Assembly (NCBI GenBank): GCA_963823665.1
Contig: CAWGMQ010000004.1
Location: 2,688,001 to 2,752,000 of the forward strand
DNA: 64,000 nt
Direction: 5' to 3'
Origin: an uncultured Planctomycetota bacterium
GTDB taxonomy: Bacteria; Planctomycetota; Planctomycetia; Isosphaerales; Isosphaeraceae
This document shows, piece by piece, positions 9,238 to 20,788 of this stretch (position 1 is its first letter; each line of letters starts with the position of its first letter). The position numbers and the translations under genes were made by a program. The notes beneath the pieces are model-generated. The model ran no database searches and was not told the DNA's origin. It saw only the letters and a list, made by a program, of their open reading frames with translations.

Positions 9238-9344
9238 TCGAGCGTTTCGCCGAATCGCTGGCCGTGGTGGCCTCGGCCCGTCCTGAGCTGTCCGCGAAGT
9301 GCGAGTCCTTGACGAACAGCCTCGCCCGGTTTTTTGAAAGATAG

Positions 9345-9419
9345 TCGGGGCGACCGGATTCGAACCGGTGACCTCCTGCTCCCAAGGCAGGCGCGCTAAC
9401 CAGGCTGCGCTACGCCCCG
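9345..9419 (-). tRNA. tRNA-Pro (TGG)
   Basis: Reverse complement CGGGGCGTAGCGCAGCCTGGTTAGCGCG-CCTGC-CT-TGG-GA-GCAGG-AGGTCACCGGTTCGAATCCGGTCGCCCCGA; full cloverleaf, CCA not encoded. Confidence 0.96.
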
Positions 9420-11943: not shown

Positions 11944-12030
11944 ACCCAATACTACAATCCCGCGTTTCGACTTGAGAACGTACAATGTAGCGACGCGAAT
12001 CGAGAGACTTCATCTGTGTCTGACTGATCG

Positions 12031-12876
12031 ATGATGAGCTCGGACAAACTCAACATGATGAACGGCGGCAACGGTCTGGTGTGCCCTGCGCTGCGCGAAT
12101 GGACGCCTGGCGGCCCAGTCTCCGGACTGGACGGGGATGAGATCGGTGTGTGGGTGGTGGAGCTGGACGCTGGGCTCGAGAGCCAGGCGGAGATTGACGG
12201 GGCAGAGCCGGGCCGTGAGCTTAAGGTGCTCGATGCGGAGGAGCGGGCGCGAGCGGCACGGTTTGTGCGGGCGCGGGACCGCAGGCGGTTTGCTCGTTGC
12301 CGATCGGCGTTGCGCGAGATACTGGGCGGCCTGGTTTGTGAGCAGCCGGAGGCGCTGCGGTTCCGAGCTGTGGCGCGGGGCAAACCCGAGCTGGATTTCC
12401 CCAACATCGACGGGAGAGAGCCGCCTGTTCGATTCAACGTCTCTCATTCATCCGAGCTCGCGGTGATTGCGGTCTGTCGCAGCCGGGAGCTGGGGGTTGA
12501 CGTTGAGCAGGTCAGGGCTATCGGCGAAGCCGAGCGGATCGTGGAATCCTTTTTCTCAGCGAACGAGCTGGCTGAGTTCGGCAGGATTGGCCCCGAGAAG
12601 AAAGCGATGGCGTTCCTCCGGGGGTGGACGCGCAAAGAGGCAATCCTTAAAGGGTTAGGCGTCGGAATCGCGGGACTGGCGGACCGTCATGAGACGGGAT
12701 TCGGGACTGGTGAGGTCACGGCTCGATTCTCTCCGGCGCTGCCGAACTGGCGCGTTGGGGCGTGGCAGCTCTGGGAGGCGTCTCCGCGCAGTGGCTTCGT
12801 GGCAACCGTTGCGTGCCGGGTGGATGCGATGGATGGCGATGCTGCAAGGACTGGGGGGCCGAATTCATGTGGTTAG
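12031..12876 (+). CDS. Sfp-type 4'-phosphopantetheinyl transferase
   Basis: GKPEL, FNVSHS, LGVDVE, WTRKEAILKGLG motifs; start uncertain. Confidence 0.92.
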   Translation: MMSSDKLNMMNGGNGLVCPALREWTPGGPVSGLDGDEIGVWVVELDAGLESQAEIDGAEPGRELKVLDAEERARAARFVRARDRRRFARCRSALREILGGLVCEQPEALRFRAVARGKPELDFPNIDGREPPVRFNVSHSSELAVIAVCRSRELGVDVEQVRAIGEAERIVESFFSANELAEFGRIGPEKKAMAFLRGWTRKEAILKGLGVGIAGLADRHETGFGTGEVTARFSPALPNWRVGAWQLWEASPRSGFVATVACRVDAMDGDAARTGGPNSCG

Positions 12877-13703
12877 TGTTCCTCGGTCTTTGCGTCCTGG
12901 CGATTTATGTCGTCATCCGCCTGATGACCAATCTGAGCGCGTGGATCACGGGTGCGCGGTATCGGGCGTACCGGCAGGTTGCGGCGCGGTATCGGGGGCG
13001 TTACGAGACGCGAGGGCTCTCCGACCCGCCAACGGTCAGTTTCACGCACAACGGCGCGACGGTGAGGGTGGGCCTGGCGCCGACGATTCAGGGCCAACCG
13101 GGCCAGATTCCACGCACTCGCGTAGTCGCGCGGTTTGGCCAGGGAATTCCGTTCCGCATGGAGCTGGCGCCGGTGGCGCGACCGGCACCGCCGCAGTCGC
13201 CGCGGGCGACCCGGCCCGTGACGACGGGTGACCGGGAATTCGACAACGGGTACGTGGTCCGGGCCAACGACGTGGAGATGTCTCGCGACTTCCTGAACTC
13301 AACGATTCGCTCCACGGTGGCCGGTTTACAGCAGTTGGTTCATCGTGGTGGGATGCTGATCTCGATCAATCCAGAGCGGATGCTCGTGCAGGTGGACCGC
13401 AATCTAGGGACGAGCACGGAGCATCTTGCGTGGGTGGTCGAGCAAGCCCTGGTGCTGCACGACCGCCTGATTGAATCGGTGACGCGGCGAATGGGCGAAG
13501 GGGTGGACATCGTCGAGGAAGCCGAATCGTGGCCGGAGGATCAGGGTACGCCCACGTGCAAGGTTTGCGGCGACCCGATTGACGAAAGTGAGATCATCGT
13601 GTGTGCATCGTGTAACACTCCGCACCATCGTAACTGCTGGGAGTACAACGGTAATGCTTGCTCGATCTATGGGTGCAACGGCAAGGTCGGTGTCAGGGAG
13701 TGA
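12867..13703 (+). CDS. Membrane-anchored protein with C-terminal prokaryotic RING finger (candidate E3 ligase)
   Basis: N-terminal TM (MWLVFLGLCVLAIYVVI); C-terminal CKVC-x11-CASC-x3-HRNCW-x6-CSIYGC at 13557-13676. Confidence 0.8.
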   Translation: MWLVFLGLCVLAIYVVIRLMTNLSAWITGARYRAYRQVAARYRGRYETRGLSDPPTVSFTHNGATVRVGLAPTIQGQPGQIPRTRVVARFGQGIPFRMELAPVARPAPPQSPRATRPVTTGDREFDNGYVVRANDVEMSRDFLNSTIRSTVAGLQQLVHRGGMLISINPERMLVQVDRNLGTSTEHLAWVVEQALVLHDRLIESVTRRMGEGVDIVEEAESWPEDQGTPTCKVCGDPIDESEIIVCASCNTPHHRNCWEYNGNACSIYGCNGKVGVRE

Positions 13704-13738
13704 TTCTTTTGCAGCTTGAACCTATCAGGGAGCCCGAC

Positions 13739-14156
13739 ATGTCGAAAATGCGAGGAGCCCGGTGGCTGGCACCGGGTTTAGTTCTATTCGGTCTGCTGGT
13801 GGCCGGGGCGCCTTCGGCCGAGCCTTCGAAGGCCGAGGAGCGTCGGGAAAGCTCGACTTGAGGCGGCCAAAAAACAGTACGACGAAACCTGGGCGTACTA
13901 TCAGCAAGCCCGCATAGATTCCTATCAGGTTTATGTGTGGTCGCGCATCATGCTCGATTGCCGGCGGGAAATGGCGCCGAAGGCCGCCGACAGGCTGGTT
14001 GCGCTCGAGGAGCACCTGGCGCGGATGAAGAAGTTGGAGTCGCTGATTTCGCGGGTGCGCCGTCTGGGGTTTGGTCGTTCCTACGACGTAGGTGCTGCGG
14101 AATACTACCGATTGGAGGCAGAGCACTGGCTGGAGCTGGAACGTGCGCGTAAGTGA
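13739..14156 (+). CDS. Secreted helical hypothetical protein, frameshift near 13850
   Basis: Signal peptide MSKMRGARWLAPGLVLFGLLVAGA in one frame; helical domain ...VWSRIML...EEHLARMKKLE...EYYRLEAEHWL in another. Confidence 0.6.
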
Positions 14157-14325
14157 ACCGAGCAAAATCGGCGATAAGGAGTTTCGAGTTGGCGCGAAGA
14201 GCGTTATCCTGGTGGAAGGATCGCCGGACGGGTGATCTGGAGGCGAGCTGGGCTACTGAAAAGGCCGGGCTCTTCTCAATATTCAGCGGTGGCGGCCGAA
14301 GAGATGCTGAGGAGGTATACTGACC

Positions 14326-14628
14326 ATGTCATACGGCGGAACAGCCGATCCCAGCGGAATCCAGGTGACATTCCTGGACCAGACCGGCGCGAAGTCGGTC
14401 AAAGCGGTCATCGCCTTCAGCGTGCCCGTCAGCCGGATCATCCCCAATATCATTACCAAGATGAGTTTGCCCGCGACCAGTCCTGACGGGCAGCCGATGA
14501 GCTACTCCCTTGACCATAAAGAGGGTGGCCGGCGACTGCTTGAGAACTGGACGCTGGTTGAGGGGGGGGTCCAGAACGGCGACCACCTGATTGTGTATCC
14601 CGAGGTTGTAGCAGGACGGATTTGTTGA
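14326..14628 (+). CDS. Ubiquitin-like beta-grasp protein (YukD/EsaB-like) with C-terminal VAG-RIC
   Basis: 100 aa; 'GRRLLENWTLVEGGVQNGDHLIVYPEVVAG' parallels the ubiquitin C-terminal half ([24 protein letters not shown]); GAGGAGG RBS; next to E2/E1/JAB. Confidence 0.85.
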   Translation: MSYGGTADPSGIQVTFLDQTGAKSVKAVIAFSVPVSRIIPNIITKMSLPATSPDGQPMSYSLDHKEGGRRLLENWTLVEGGVQNGDHLIVYPEVVAGRIC

Positions 14629-14752
14629 GGCCCAGCGTGGGTGCCGCGATTAGCTCGCGGCGCGCAGCAATGGTGCACGACAACTCTCGGCCCGCGCTCG
14701 ACTTCGATGCACCGGGAGGCCTCCGCAGGGGCCGAGGGGCGATCGCACGACC

Positions 14753-15610
14753 ATGTATCAATCTCCTCGCATGCGCCGCCTGCGAAACGATTTGGCGGCG
14801 CTAGAACGACTTCAATCGGAAAGCAGTGTCTTTCGCTTCAAAGCCCACGGCAAGCCGGCGCATCATTTCCTTATCCATTTAGTGGGTAAGAGTTTATACC
14901 GTTTGCGCGGCCAGGTGATGGCGCACGACGACCATCGCGTCGAGATCAAGCTCGGTGCGTCGTATCCGCGCACGATCCCGGAAATCCGCTGGATCACGCC
15001 GATCTATCACCCGAACATCTCCGAGATCGGGATGGTTTGCCTGGGTGGGTATGGAACGCACTGGGTGCCGAGCGTGCAGCTCGACGAGCTGTGCAACATG
15101 CTGTGGGACATGGCGCGGTATCACAACTACGACATCCGAAGCCCTTATAACCGAGATGCAGCGCTCTGGGTTGCGAGCCAGACGAAATTCCTGTTCCCGA
15201 CTGATCCACGACCGCTGCGAGACCTTCGGGCCGCGCTGGGCCGGGTCGAGCCAGCGATGGACGCGGCATCGGGGCCCAAGCATGCGGGGGGGGACGATCA
15301 CACGAACGGCTCGTCGAATTCGACTGCGAGTGATCCGGAGGGCGGCGAAACCACGCCGACTCGGGTTCGCCAGTTCATGAATCGCTATGGCGGCATTTTC
15401 GCCAAGAGTCCAGGCCGGCGGGGCGGTGATCAAGGCGAGCGGGCCGATGATCGAGACGAGATCACCAGGCCTGCTGCAGCGGGTTCGGCGCCGATCGCGA
15501 GCGCTGCGGCCGTGCCGCAGCGAGATGACGAAGAGATCATTCTTCTCGAGTCGGCCAGTGCGGCCGATCACAGGCGTGAGGGTGTCGACGGGATCACGTT
15601 CATCGAGTAA
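14753..15610 (+). CDS. Ubiquitin-conjugating enzyme E2-like protein with disordered acidic C-terminal tail
   Basis: RRLRNDL helix, YPRTIPEIRWITPIYHPNISEIGMVCL (HPN triad, catalytic Cys codon 15038-15040), HWVPS, SPYNRDAA. Confidence 0.92.
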   Translation: MYQSPRMRRLRNDLAALERLQSESSVFRFKAHGKPAHHFLIHLVGKSLYRLRGQVMAHDDHRVEIKLGASYPRTIPEIRWITPIYHPNISEIGMVCLGGYGTHWVPSVQLDELCNMLWDMARYHNYDIRSPYNRDAALWVASQTKFLFPTDPRPLRDLRAALGRVEPAMDAASGPKHAGGDDHTNGSSNSTASDPEGGETTPTRVRQFMNRYGGIFAKSPGRRGGDQGERADDRDEITRPAAAGSAPIASAAAVPQRDDEEIILLESASAADHRREGVDGITFIE

Positions 15611-15721
15611 CGTGAGACGCCGTGCGCCGTTGTGGGTGGATGCGATTGCGGAATTTCGCGCCGGTCACTCGCGCGACGGGGGACGGCCGGTGAATTCAAC
15701 GGGCCGCGGCGAGGAGTCGTG

Positions 15722-16984
15722 ATGGCGGACGAGCGACCCATGGAATCAACCGGTCAAGCTCCGGCTCCCGGGGCGACCGGCGCCGGGCAGGGAGCGGAAG
15801 GCAATGCCCTTGCCAGTCCCATGGTCATCGACGACCAGGACCGGTACAGCAGCCTTCGATTGATCTCGTGGTGGCGGCAGGATCGGCTGCGCTCGGCGAG
15901 CGTGCTCGTCGTCGGCGCCGGGGCTCTGGGCAATGAGGTCATGAAGAACCTGGCTCTGCTCGGATTGGGGACGATCTACCTGGTCGACTTCGATACGATT
16001 GAAGCCTCAAATCTTTCGCGATCGGTTTTATTTCGCGATTCGGACGCCGGGCGCCCCAAGGCGATGGTGGCCGCACAGCGGGCGCGCGAGCTCAATCCGG
16101 AGGTGACGATCATACCGATTCACGGTGACGTCATCGTGGACATCGGACTGGGGCTCTTTCACGACGTTGATCTGGTGATCGGCTGCCTCGACAACCGGGA
16201 AGCCCGGCTGTGGGTGAATCGCCAGTGCTGGAAAACGGGCACGCCGTGGATCGATGCGGGCATTCAGGAGATTCAAGGGGTGGTCAAGGTTTTCGTCCCG
16301 CCGGATTCGTCATGCTACGAGTGCGCGATGACCGAGCGCGATTATCAGCTTCTCAACCGCCGGTATAGCTGCCCACTACTCTCACGCGATGAGATCCTCT
16401 CGGGCAAAGTGCCGACGGCCCCGACGATCGCTTCGATGATGGCGGCGCTTCAAGTACAGGAAGCGCTCAAGCTCTTGCACGGCATGCCGGTCGCTGCGGG
16501 ATCGGCTCTTGTGTACAACGGAGTAGCGAACCAGTTCTATTCCACGCGGTTACCGTTCCGGGACGACTGCTTGAGCCACGAGACCTACCCGGCGGCGGTT
16601 GAGCTTCCGCTGGGTCAGAAGCAGACGGTGCGGGAGCTTTTCGAGGCAGTGGGGCCACGTCTTGATGGCCGGCTGCACCTGGTGCTCGAGCGGGAGCTGG
16701 TTGTGGCGATCGAATGCCCGCGATGCGATTGGCGCAGGGAGGTGATGCGGCCGCGGGTGAAGGTGAAGTCATCGGAAGCCGAGTGCCCGAGCTGCCGGGA
16801 ACCAGCACGGCCAACGTTCGAGAGCGGCATCGAGGCGGATTCACCGCTTGTTGCTTGCTCGCTTTCGCGAGTTGGAATTCCACCTTACGATATCGTGAGG
16901 GTGGACGGGGAAAGCGAGTCGGGATTCTTCCTGCTGGCCGCTGATCGGGAAGACGGCAAGACGGGCTGGGGGTCAGGCGGTTGA
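15722..16984 (+). CDS. E1-like ThiF/UBA activating enzyme with C-terminal Zn-binding domain
   Basis: DRYS, VVGAGALGNE, DFDTIEASNLSRS, CLDNREAR, CYEC, YSCPLL (putative catalytic Cys 16370-16372), CPRC...CPSC. Confidence 0.92.
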   Translation: MADERPMESTGQAPAPGATGAGQGAEGNALASPMVIDDQDRYSSLRLISWWRQDRLRSASVLVVGAGALGNEVMKNLALLGLGTIYLVDFDTIEASNLSRSVLFRDSDAGRPKAMVAAQRARELNPEVTIIPIHGDVIVDIGLGLFHDVDLVIGCLDNREARLWVNRQCWKTGTPWIDAGIQEIQGVVKVFVPPDSSCYECAMTERDYQLLNRRYSCPLLSRDEILSGKVPTAPTIASMMAALQVQEALKLLHGMPVAAGSALVYNGVANQFYSTRLPFRDDCLSHETYPAAVELPLGQKQTVRELFEAVGPRLDGRLHLVLERELVVAIECPRCDWRREVMRPRVKVKSSEAECPSCREPARPTFESGIEADSPLVACSLSRVGIPPYDIVRVDGESESGFFLLAADREDGKTGWGSGG

Positions 16985-18387
16985 ACGGCGATGAAATCAC
17001 TTTCGGCGATGTGCGGGTTCGCGAGCCGGAGCGGCGCGCGCGGCCGGATCGGGACCGGCGATTTGCATCCGTTGCCTATGAAGTGCCGGGCGCGGCCGAC
17101 CTGCCGATCTTTCTCGATCGCCGCGCGGCGGACGCGATCGAACGGCACGCTCTCTCCGACACGTCGGTCGAGCTGGGTGGAATTCTGCTGGGCAAGGAAT
17201 GCCTCGACACGGCAACTGGACAGGCTTTCGTGTGGGTGAATCAGTCGCTCGAGGCCAAACACTACGCGAATACTCAGGCCAGCTTCACTTATACTCACGA
17301 TTCATGGGAAGAGATCACTCGAGAGCGCGACCAGCGGTTTCCGCAGTACGACATCGTCGGCTGGTATCACACGCATCCCAACTTCGGAATCTTTCTCTCG
17401 CACCACGATTTATTTATTCATCACAACTTTTTTTCACAGGCACTGCAAGTTGCCTACGTTGTTGACCCAATCAACCAGACTCGCGGTTTTTTCCAGTGGC
17501 GCGACGGCGGAATGGCGCAGGTGCAGGGTTACTACCTCACGGCGGATCGCGGCGATCGGATAGCACTGGCGAGGCTTGCGAACGACCTCGAGCAGCTTCC
17601 GAATGCGGAAGGCGGCTCGGGGGGAGCCTTTTCACCTCGCCTCGAAGCGGAGCTGATCAAGATGCTTACAAGAACTGGGCAGCGCGACGTCCATTCGCCG
17701 GTTGAGAGACTCCAGTTTGCCACTGTCTATGGCCTACTGGGGATTTTCCTCGGCGTGATGGGGCTGGCCACCGTGCTCTGGCTGAGCCAGCTTCTGGGCC
17801 AGATTCAGGCGATGAAGGAATCGATTCAGACTCGAGCGCGTGTGGACGAGGAATCAGCCGCGCGCGTGCGGCTGATGAGTGACGCTTTGCTGGAGCGAGC
17901 GGTCAAGGACCCTGTTGACTTCGTCGCGTTGTACGAGAAGAAGAAAAAAGAGCTAGATGACGTAGAGAAGCGAGCGGGAAGCTTAAGCACTTCAGTCGTA
18001 GAACTCGGGAGGGATCTGAAGCGCGAGCAGAAAGACAACGAGCGTCTGGTCAAGGAGCTTTCCGTTTCGAACGAGAAACTCGTGAAGGCCGAGGAGAAAG
18101 CCGCTGGAGCGGCGGAACTGAACTCGCGGGTTGTGGAGGTGGAAAAAGAGCGGGACACGCAGCAGCAGGAGCTCGCGGAGCTGAAGGAGCGGATAGACCC
18201 CGAAACCGGCCAAGTTGCTCTGGCAATGAAGCGCAAGCTGGATCGCACCCAATACATGATGTATGGGGGCTGGGCGTGCAGCGCGTTTCTCGGTGTCGCA
18301 ATCGCGGCCGCGTACTTCCTGCTCAAACCCGTTCCGAGCGTCCCCCTTGAGGATGACAAAGAGCGTCCCGCGCACCGGATCGAGTAA
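16981..18387 (+). CDS. JAB/MPN+ (JAMM) metallopeptidase with two TM helices flanking a coiled coil
   Basis: VELGGILLG and VGWYHTHPNFGIFLSHHD (E...HxH-x7-S-x2-D); TM ~17716-17785 and ~18252-18325; TTG start overlaps E1 stop. Confidence 0.9.
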   Translation: MNGDEITFGDVRVREPERRARPDRDRRFASVAYEVPGAADLPIFLDRRAADAIERHALSDTSVELGGILLGKECLDTATGQAFVWVNQSLEAKHYANTQASFTYTHDSWEEITRERDQRFPQYDIVGWYHTHPNFGIFLSHHDLFIHHNFFSQALQVAYVVDPINQTRGFFQWRDGGMAQVQGYYLTADRGDRIALARLANDLEQLPNAEGGSGGAFSPRLEAELIKMLTRTGQRDVHSPVERLQFATVYGLLGIFLGVMGLATVLWLSQLLGQIQAMKESIQTRARVDEESAARVRLMSDALLERAVKDPVDFVALYEKKKKELDDVEKRAGSLSTSVVELGRDLKREQKDNERLVKELSVSNEKLVKAEEKAAGAAELNSRVVEVEKERDTQQQELAELKERIDPETGQVALAMKRKLDRTQYMMYGGWACSAFLGVAIAAAYFLLKPVPSVPLEDDKERPAHRIE

Positions 18388-18411
18388 GATCGATGCCCGA
18401 ACACAGGACAG

Positions 18412-19740
18412 ATGATGGGGGTTCGCAGAAACAATCGGTTGCTGCTGTGCTTCGTCACCCTTGCGGCCGTTCTTGTGGCGGCGGGGGCGTTCACGCTCGT
18501 TCGGGCGCAAACAGCCGCAGACGGTCAGCGCACCGCGTCTCGAGCCGGTGAAATTGAACCGGTACCCGTTCCGGAAGCGAGCGCGCGCGCTCTTGAGTTT
18601 TACTGGAGCGGAAACAGGCTCTGGATCCTGAATGTTGCCTGGGCAATGACGCTTCCGGGCTTGATGGCGTTTTCGGGTTTTTCTGCGCGGCTGCGGAACT
18701 TGGCAGCAAGGTTGGGGCGAGTGAGGTTCGTCACGCTTGGCCTGTACGTGCTGATGTATCTGGCGATCGTCTTCCTGGTCGACCTGCCGCTGTCTTACTA
18801 CGAAGGCTACGTGCGGCTGCATGCGTACGGACTTTCCAATCAGACGCTTGGCAAGTGGTTCGGCGATTCGGTCATCCGGTTGGCAATCTCGATGGTGGCG
18901 GGCGTCGCTCTGGCCTGGGTTCCTTATCTTTTGATTGCTCGCAGCCCGAAGCGCTGGTGGTTGTATACGGCGGTGCTCTCAGTACCGTTTCTGTTCGCGG
19001 TCATGTTGATCAAGCCAATCTGGATCGATCCGCTCTTCAATCGGTTTGGGCCGATGCACGACCTCGATCTCGAGCAGCAAATACTGAAACTAGCACGGAA
19101 GGCGGAAATTGCTGCGGACCGGGTGTTCGAGGTTGAAAAGAGCGTCGATACCAAGGCGGTGAACGCGTATGTGACGGGTGTGTTTGCGACAAAGAGAATC
19201 GTTCTCTGGGATACCTTGCTGGCCAAGCTGGACGCGCCGGAAGTGCTGCATGTGATGGGCCATGAAATGGGGCATTACGCCCTGGGACATGTGGTCCGTT
19301 CCATCGTTCTATCGGCCGGGCTCACGCTTGTTGGACTTTTCCTGGTTGATTGGGCGGGGCGCAAGCTGGTCGGCCGATTTGCAGGTCGACTCGGATTCGA
19401 GCGGCTTTCGGACGTTGCCTCGCTGCCGCTCGTGCTCTTGCTACTCGAAGTTGCGATGTTCGTGCTGACACCCGTTGCGCTAGCATACAGCCGACATCAG
19501 GAGCACGAGGCGGATAAGTACGCGCTCGATCTCGTTAGAGACAATCACTCGGGCGCCTTGTCGTTCGTGAAGTTGATGGAAACGAACCTCAGCAATCCGC
19601 GGCCGGGGCCAATTTACAAGTTTTTCCGCTCAAGTCACCCGAGCATCGGCGAACGAATTGACTTCTGCAACAGCTATCGGCCGCCGCGATCAAGCGAGTC
19701 TAAGCGGGGCGAAGAAGAGCCGCGTTATCGATCGAATTAA
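18412..19740 (+). CDS. M48 family (Ste24-like) integral membrane zinc protease
   Basis: VNAYVTG...KRIVLWDTLL, HEMGH, SRHQEHEADKYA, SHPSIGERI; multiple TMs. Confidence 0.92.
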   Translation: MMGVRRNNRLLLCFVTLAAVLVAAGAFTLVRAQTAADGQRTASRAGEIEPVPVPEASARALEFYWSGNRLWILNVAWAMTLPGLMAFSGFSARLRNLAARLGRVRFVTLGLYVLMYLAIVFLVDLPLSYYEGYVRLHAYGLSNQTLGKWFGDSVIRLAISMVAGVALAWVPYLLIARSPKRWWLYTAVLSVPFLFAVMLIKPIWIDPLFNRFGPMHDLDLEQQILKLARKAEIAADRVFEVEKSVDTKAVNAYVTGVFATKRIVLWDTLLAKLDAPEVLHVMGHEMGHYALGHVVRSIVLSAGLTLVGLFLVDWAGRKLVGRFAGRLGFERLSDVASLPLVLLLLEVAMFVLTPVALAYSRHQEHEADKYALDLVRDNHSGALSFVKLMETNLSNPRPGPIYKFFRSSHPSIGERIDFCNSYRPPRSSESKRGEEEPRYRSN

Positions 19741-19780
19741 CCAGCTTCATTCCTTGATGGTTTGCTAAAGGAACCTCTTC

Positions 19781-20296
19781 ATGGCCAGGCCCGAAACGAC
19801 CGAATACGCCTCCTACTATGGTAAATACATCACGCTGGTTCCTGAGCACGACATCATTGACGCGATGAAATCTGACGCTGCGAAGACGTTCGCTTTCCTG
19901 GCCGGCATTCCCGAAGCGGCCGCGTGCGTTCCTCACCCACCGTACACGTGGTCGATCAAGCAAGTGGTTGGGCATCTGAGCGATTGCGAGCGTGTATTTG
20001 GCTATCGTGCGCTTCGATTTGCGCGCGGGGATTCAACGCCGCTTCCCGGTTTCGACGAGAACACTTATGCAGCAGCGGCCCAACATAACAAGGTTCCGCT
20101 CGTCAGCCTGGTTTCCGAGCTCGAGAATCTGAGGAGATCGCACATCGCGTTCTTCGAGCAGCTTCCTGCGGAGGCGTGGCTACGTCGAGGCACTGCGAAC
20201 AACGCCGAGGTGAGCGTCCGCGCGCTGGCGTTCATTCTTGTCGGGCACGAACGGCATCATGCGGGAATCGTCCGGAAGCGGCTTTCGAAGCAATGA
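19781..20296 (+). CDS. DinB/DUF664-like protein
   Basis: WSIKQVVGHLSDCERVF, LPGFDEN, GHERHH. Confidence 0.88.
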   Translation: MARPETTEYASYYGKYITLVPEHDIIDAMKSDAAKTFAFLAGIPEAAACVPHPPYTWSIKQVVGHLSDCERVFGYRALRFARGDSTPLPGFDENTYAAAAQHNKVPLVSLVSELENLRRSHIAFFEQLPAEAWLRRGTANNAEVSVRALAFILVGHERHHAGIVRKRLSKQ

Positions 20297-20309
20297 GTGC
20301 GGGCGACGT

Positions 20310-20788
20310 AGGTAATCTGTCTCTTCCTTTGCCGGACACCCGGGATACTGCTCGCGAATCGCTCTTGCAAATGCGGCGATGAATTCATGGTCTTCGTGTT
20401 GGCGGCGATCCGCGGCCCGCGCCTGACGCCGCGCACGTAGTTCCGCGTCCGCGAGTGATTCTTCCTCTGCGCGGAGCAGCGCTTCCGGCTCGACCAGGAT
20501 GCCCTGCCGCTCATATCGTTTACGCGTACGCGACCAGCGAACGACGACCGCGCGTAGCGTTGAGTATTTACTGGCCCGGCGCGTCACCGCCGCATCACCG
20601 CTGGGCAAAAACTCCAGCCGGTCGAGATCTGCACAGCTCGTGCAAAGGGCCTTCTCCCCCTCCAGCCGCAGCAGACTGCCCTTCCACAGCTCAGCACCGC
20701 ATTCCGTGCACTTGGTCTCACGAATCACGGAGAAGACGACGATCTCTGCTCCGGAGCCGCTTTTCGGTTTGTCTGCCTTGCGAGCCAT
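20310..20788 (-). pseudogene. DUF2293-like protein, C-terminally truncated
   Basis: CTEC...CTSCADLD, FLPSGDAAVTRRA, WSRTRKRYERQGILVE, YPGCP; then reads into the antisense of DinB instead of a family C-terminus. Confidence 0.6.

Follow-up and report, generated by a model that had tools for sequence, protein, structure and literature searches.

The operon around the Ubl gene

The window, which is the whole stretch of 64,000 nucleotides analysed here, contains a run of genes on one strand in the order RING, small ORF, ubiquitin-like protein (Ubl), E2, E1, JAB and M48. The genes and the features of the Ubl gene are:

12762..13703, plus strand: Prok-RING_1 protein (PF14446, E 7e-10) with an N-terminal predicted membrane helix, candidate E3; likely start ATG 12867
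13935-14156: small ORF in the interval between RING and Ubl, without Pfam family; possible start further upstream
14310..14315, plus strand: AGGAGG, a hexamer resembling a ribosome-binding site, 10 nt upstream of the ATG (sequence)
14326..14628, plus strand: Ubl of the YukD family with beta-grasp fold, 100-aa precursor (PF08817, AlphaFold model and fold search)
14614..14616, plus strand: GGA codon of Gly97, predicted reactive C-terminus after trimming (invariant in a 35-sequence alignment and in 117 of 117 parsed proteins)
14617..14625, plus strand: Arg-Ile-Cys overhang, CGG ATT TGT (sequence; compare loci L123, L163 and L001)
14626..14628, plus strand: stop codon TGA of the Ubl gene (sequence)
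14753..15610, plus strand: E2 (UQ_con) with HPN at residues 86-88, Cys96 and a low-complexity C-terminal tail (family match and motif)
15722..16984, plus strand: E1 (ThiF family) with a GAGALG loop and CxxC pairs (family match and motif)
16981..18387, plus strand: JAB/JAMM peptidase with an N-terminal catalytic domain and two predicted helices; its start overlaps the E1 stop
18412..19740, plus strand: M48 (Ste24/HtpX-type) membrane peptidase, a frequent neighbour (family match)

The catalytic cysteine of the E1 is likely Cys217, which is a guess from its position. Some of the close relatives have a homologue of the small ORF at 13935-14156 in the corresponding position. A search of positions 12000-20400 revealed no sigma-70-like promoter, and the terminator-like sites in this region stay below the number expected by chance. 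A tRNA-Pro(TGG) is encoded on the minus strand at 9344-9419, about 3.3 kb upstream of the RING gene.

The Ubl gene translates into 100 amino acids with the C-terminus ...LIVYPEVVAGRIC, given also as LIVYPEVVAG-RIC. This confirms the initial annotation, which had read VVAG followed by RIC and a stop, with the Gly codon at 14614-14616; the tail recurs on independent contigs, as described below. The protein matches the Pfam family YukD (PF08817) with an E-value of 7e-13 and has 1039 homologues, of which the nearest named ones are from Isosphaeraceae planctomycetes. The AlphaFold model, calculated from 35 homologues, reached a pLDDT of 84, and in a Foldseek comparison with the PDB it was most similar to SUMO, ubiquitin and the ubiquitin of C. 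subterraneum (CsUb, rank 4). A profile of the Ubl alignment gave no significant match to the PDB; the best E-value was 0.38, and ubiquitin followed with 0.66-0.68.

Full flanks are available for 53 of the 80 related genome loci. The E2 gene adjoins in all 53, E1 in 50, JAB in 48, M48 in 39 and RING in 32. The Ubl was found in 22 of the 24 genomes searched from the same family, in none of the 16 genomes from other families of the class, and in 39 of the 301 genomes sampled across the phylum. The operon thus looks like family-wide housekeeping and not like a sporadic defence island. The position of M48 after JAB in 39 of the 53 full-flank loci is a hint of membrane-protein quality control.

Prokaryotic tri-ligase operons, consisting of Ubl, E1, E2, RING and JAB, were reportedly predicted by Burroughs, Iyer and Aravind in 2011. 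The operon described here has the same parts, namely a Ubl with ubiquitin fold and conserved Gly, linked to an E1, a Cys-bearing UQ_con E2, a Prok-RING_1 protein and a JAB. According to PMC7159879, the JAB of tri-ligase systems was proposed to cut a longer polypeptide and so set the Ubl free, and Planctomycetes have related systems. We also considered type VII secretion, to which some YukD proteins are linked (PMC1779556), as an origin of a YukD/EsaB-like protein. However, among the nine neighbouring proteins scanned, which include E2, E1, JAB, RING, M48, a phosphopantetheinyl transferase, DinB and one protein without family, neither ESAT-6/WXG100 nor an FtsK-type ATPase was found, and this candidate was rejected.

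A fixed glycine and a variable tail

Gly97 is invariant across an alignment of 35 sequences (A1), and conservation drops exactly past this residue, where an unconserved overhang follows. From the 120 protein matches listed 117 could be parsed, and all 117 contain the Gly (VVAG in 110, IVAG in 5, two odd endings). Within the same set 37 proteins are tail-less, 36 carry two extra residues and 4 end in Cys. The genome loci, of which 78 of 80 were parsed (one is frameshifted and one cut at a contig end), comprise 14 tail-less genes, 44 with dipeptide tails and 2 ending in Cys; the corresponding numbers for the 79 parsed of 80 metagenome loci are 6, 55 and 3. Taken together, these 157 related loci show 73 distinct endings, with 20 tail-less genes, 99 dipeptides and 5 Cys endings, and none of them ends in RIC. 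The protein and locus sets keep duplicates and count kin as if separate, so that the numbers are not independent. Among cultured relatives, Singulisphaera acidiphila has the tail RS and Aquisphaera insulae the tail RA, and the Ubls of Paludisphaera soli and Tautonia sociabilis are tail-less. A more distant set from the phylum sample, with 26 of 29 loci parsed, contains the Gly in 25 cases and Ala in one, and 4 of these loci are tail-less.

The initial annotation had proposed that the Ubl is encoded as a pro-form, and that an alignment of homologues could tell an invariant Gly from a variable tail. The pro-form is likely right, and the alignment shows the expected contrast: in close relatives the Gly does not change, the tail does (73 endings in 157 loci), and the JAB of the operon has a full JAMM site. 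The annotation had further noted AG instead of GG. This is not unusual here, as VVAG or IVAG is the usual ending in the relatives, and BilA and UFM1 also have a single reactive Gly. The one Ala among the distant loci belongs to L087, an orthologue which adjoins E2 and JAB and in which the terminal Gly, otherwise kept, is replaced. In C. subterraneum the Gly78Ala mutant of CsUb is reported to be still cleaved by the Rpn11 protein (CsRpn11; PMC6043591).

A tree of the concatenated Ubl, E2, E1 and JAB sequences was calculated with FastTree for 72 tips, i.e. 70 of the 80 genome loci, the window and one outgroup; the 10 omitted loci had a coverage under 60% or lacked the motif. Tail and no tail are separated by at least 7 changes on this tree, whereas 1000 shuffles of the labels required 11.3 on average and never fewer than 8; for a Cys-containing tail at least 4 changes are needed. 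The tail state is inherited within clades, yet repeatedly switched. For the 42 tips with dipeptide tails we counted no amino-acid change from E93 to G97, 10 changes at the first tail residue and 27 at the second. The four triplets past the stop, taken without indel alignment, each show 22-27 changes. The second tail codon therefore varies like non-coding DNA, the first codon less. The length of the tail is exactly two in 99 of the 157 loci, despite a second residue that varies in this way.

The first tail residue is biased. Asp, Glu or Pro occupies this position in one of 137 tails, whereas these residues fill the second position in 20 of 133 tails and make up about 20% of the background. Arg is the first residue in 66 of the 137 tails, for which five different Arg codons are used in addition to AGA. 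In C. subterraneum a Glu in the first tail position blocks Rpn11, and the authors concluded that steric fit is what the distal residues are selected for (PMC6043591). The scarcity of Asp, Glu and Pro therefore fits a selection for cleavability, and the bias may be taken as indirect support for the tail really being cut. Acidic first residues do exist, as in the proteins P0027, P0113 and P0123 and at locus L118. The bias could alternatively be due to the loss of stop codons together with shared ancestry. Codons for Arg, Ser, Cys, Gln and Gly are one step away from a stop codon.

The JAB peptidase and the probable maturation of the precursor

The JAMM site of the JAB protein is complete, with E64, H130, H132, S140 and D143. 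E64, S140 and D143 are invariant in 58 aligned domains (57 of the 69 extracted relatives and the window), which were chosen by their two His residues. The best solved relative is CsRpn11 with an E-value of 2.5e-7. Hydropathy indicates two helices, 248-266 and 430-448, which flank a long charged segment behind the N-terminal domain, and 59 of the 64 complete JAB relatives have one predicted helix or more. The position of the two predicted helices behind the domain suggests that the JAB domain faces the cytoplasm.

The peptidase is not confined to loci with a tail. Twelve of the 14 tail-less loci have a JAB gene within the fetched DNA, and all 12 proteins keep the E, HxH, S and D residues as well as the two helices. 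The JAB thus appears to be needed even where there is no tail to trim, suggesting that it serves mainly in deconjugation. Where a tail is present, its trimming by the JAB of the operon is likely.

A parallel is found in C. subterraneum, where the C-terminal peptide of pro-ubiquitin is reported to be removed by an Rpn11-like JAMM protein that also deconjugates (PMC5654768, PMC6043591). As in the operon described here, a tailed Ubl precursor and an Rpn11-like JAMM protein occur together with an E1/E2/RING set. However, CsUb carries nine residues after its terminal Gly-Gly, and CsRpn11 is a soluble protein, whereas the Ubl of the window has Ala-Gly and its JAB has predicted membrane helices. Since the Gly77Ala exchange in CsUb strongly slows the cleavage (PMC6043591), the JAB of the operon must have adapted to Ala-Gly.

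The Bil systems show the same combination of a single conserved Gly, an unconserved overhang and a JAB partner. In Type II BilA proteins the Gly is described as conserved throughout, with an unconserved stretch of at most nine residues behind it; the cut by BilC falls directly after this Gly, and uncut BilA cannot be adenylated (10.1101/2023.09.26.559546). Overhangs of 2-9 aa are given for 12 Type I BilA proteins (10.1101/2023.09.04.556158). Bil is, however, a four-gene anti-phage system without RING, while the operon described here has a RING and a membrane JAB and is near-universal in the family. We also looked for the Bil system itself with PADLOC, and it was rejected: Ubl, E2 and RING match no model, E1 and JAB are found only as general E1 and JAB folds, and the BilD score of the E1 (1.5e-11) lies below those of several E1-E2 models.

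Bil and Bub are treated together in 10.1101/2024.11.21.623966. In Type I Bub the BubCD JAB is reported to cut BubA from a longer pre-protein right after the conserved Gly (10.1101/2024.11.21.623953), which is a precedent for a JAB that frees a Ubl from a fusion, as would be required for the fused paralogue described below. Bub differs in that Tyr and Ser replace the catalytic Cys and the Ubl is fused to E2, whereas the E2 of the window has a canonical Cys. UFM1 has a single reactive Gly with a Ser-Cys tail (PMC4936604); this likeness is by description and an analogy only, as the UFSPs are cysteine proteases whereas the JAB is a JAMM protein. A pro-form is ordinary for Ubls linked to a JAB, and a cap behind a single Gly is already documented in Bil and UFM1.

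We consider it probable that the Ubl of the window is a routine precursor, trimmed by the JAB and with a dispensable tail; for cleavage, conjugation, topology and targets this is what we infer from the genes. The Ubl would be made as a short precursor, and the membrane-anchored JAB would cut after Gly97 as a routine step. The E1 would then adenylate Gly97 and hand the tag, via Cys217 if the guess from position is right, to Cys96 of the E2. The membrane RING may aid the transfer of the tag onto targets, which the anchors of RING, JAB and M48 suggest to be membrane proteins. The main reason for keeping the JAB would be to strip the tag from conjugates with membrane proteins and return it for reuse. 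The tail itself would be a tolerated leftover that has to be short and cleavable, whereas neither a particular sequence nor the Cys, nor indeed any tail at all, would be required. In the literature searched, with most subscription journals outside reach, we found no experimental study of cleavage or conjugation in this planctomycete operon family. Several observations run counter to routine trimming. Most lineages keep a tail, and a length of two residues in 99 of the 157 loci is not obviously explained by pure neutrality. Tailed and tail-less loci group together on the tree more than shuffled labels do (7 changes, shuffled mean 11.3), L087 has Ala for the Gly, and two further JAB genes of the genome could trim as well.

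According to the initial annotation the activation of the Ubl could be gated at the membrane. In such a scheme the tagging would be blocked by the tail up to its release by a regulated membrane JAB near the membrane-anchored ligases. The helix predicted in 59 of 64 complete JAB proteins and in the RING protein would suit such a gate, as would a tail that is present in most lineages and narrowly of two residues, and a paralogous Ubl which is itself membrane-tethered. However, a tail is lacking in 14 of the 78 genome loci and in 37 of the 117 parsed proteins with the same JAB kept (12 of 12 intact among those in view), and the tail was switched at least 7 times. A small soluble precursor would moreover be expected to reach a cytoplasm-facing JAB domain by diffusion, and the JAB is without a recognised sensor domain. 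We thus find the argument for a gate weak and regard it as unlikely.

We judge it improbable that another enzyme trims the tail, be it the JAB of a second operon, a soluble JAB, a carboxypeptidase or the M48 neighbour, even though the genome contains three JAB genes and M48 adjoins in 39 of 53 loci. Against this, a lack of cross-reaction between Rpn11 and the SAMP JAMM is reported for C. subterraneum (PMC6043591). The JAB gene of the second operon is split across two frames in this assembly. The third JAB gene (L194:1432-1938) encodes a soluble protein and is located beside an ORF which looks like a cysteine synthase, as named from a reading of its sequence. This neighbour points to sulfur-carrier work, and the protein is probably a peptidase of the Mec type. 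A CAAX-type processing by the M48 protein was rejected as well, for the tail is not a CaaX motif and is variable.

Very improbable is a Ubl that remains unconjugated or serves as a sulfur carrier. Its Pfam class is YukD, the YukD protein of B. subtilis is reported to be unconjugated (PMC1779556), and ThiF-type E1 and JAB proteins serve in sulfur relays too. Against this stand the E2 with HPN and Cys96, which adjoins in 53 of 53 full-flank loci, the RING in 32 of them, the invariant Gly, and SUMO and ubiquitin as leading fold matches.

The terminal Cys of the tail was supposed by the initial annotation to make the precursor redox-sensitive, and lipidation or a disulfide link would be related ideas. 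In five of the 14 listed members of the 90% cluster the tail indeed consists of three residues with Cys as the last (RIC twice, RNC, WNC and RAC), the Cys is constant within this small clade while the other two tail positions vary, and the UFM1 tail is Ser-Cys. However, only 5 of 157 loci and 4 of 117 parsed proteins end in Cys. The near clade is also very recent, with mature parts 0-3 residues apart, so the constant codon carries little weight. A simpler origin is indicated by the DNA. Across tail and stop the window reads AT-TTG-TTG-A, with TTG at 14622-14624 repeated at 14625-14627, and L123 reads CGG ATT TGA (RI*). RIC* is thus RI* plus a repeat of 3 nt, and RNC* of L001 relates likewise to RN* of L163; L008 (SRC*) has CTG-CTG-A at its stop. 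As any repeat of xTG at a TGA stop, with x being T or C, gives a Cys codon followed by TGA, RIC, RNC and SRC can be explained by slippage, with the Cys codon apparently the product of a 3-nt duplication at the stop. A function of the Cys is highly unlikely in our opinion, and the redox idea finds no support.

There is next to no chance that the tail stems from an assembly error, with the true gene ending at the Gly, although indels are likely elsewhere in this assembly (E1 and JAB of the second operon), since the exact protein is found on 3 contigs, the window's own being one of them, from 4 sources, GRIC also ends P0002 and P0130, non-identical members of the cluster from other contigs, and the sister locus L001 ends in RNC. 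Judged by these sequences, the Ubl is a real gene and its tail is no one-off error. The strain itself is absent from public read runs, the best of which contains 0.17 of the window's words. Three DNA runs at 85% likeness gave no contigs at any depth over 14611-14629. In one RNA run at 85% likeness the contigs over the Ubl gene are those of relatives and inform neither about the strain nor about the expression level.

With routine trimming as the preferred reading, the tail itself is of little weight, as capped single-Gly Ubls are known and relatives manage without a cap. For a reconstitution of the operon family the tag should be expressed ending at Gly97 or together with an active JAB, and removal of the tail would be the simplest first readout of membrane JAB activity. 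The natural tails are a ready series for the P1' position, with Arg, Ser, Ala, Cys, Gln, Gly and His common and Asp, Glu and Pro nearly absent.

A membrane-tethered paralogue

The genome encodes a paralogous Ubl outside the window (L082:1465-2166; G000:C4, about 2467243-2467944), which is 41-42% identical to the Ubl. In this protein PEITAG is followed by a zinc ribbon and a DUF4190-like two-helix anchor. A Ubl with zinc ribbon and at least one helix was found in 81 among 120 matches listed, with [IV]TAG in 79, Arg for Gly in one and one mis-parsed; OJF2_27250 of Aquisphaera giovannonii is one such fusion. Since a JAB would have to free this tag from a membrane anchor, the idea of a release at the membrane suits the paralogue better than the Ubl at 14326-14628, and for regulated release it is the better place to look.

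One may go further and see planctomycete Ubl tagging at the membrane as a process in which maturation is the first controlled step. The membrane JAB would clip a short, selected cap and also free a second tag from an anchored zinc-ribbon precursor, as a bacterial counterpart of ER-linked control of the UFM1/ERAD type. We regard this as rather doubtful.

The second operon (L113:9244-17137) encodes a Ubl fusion, E1, JAB, a membrane FHA protein, a zinc-ribbon membrane protein, two Prok-RING_1 proteins and an E2 with zinc ribbon. In this assembly an apparent frameshift interrupts the start of its E1, and another one its JAB. One of the two Prok-RING_1 proteins is fused to DUF4190 and a trypsin-like protease. 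Both halves of the Ubl fusion also exist as stand-alone forms.
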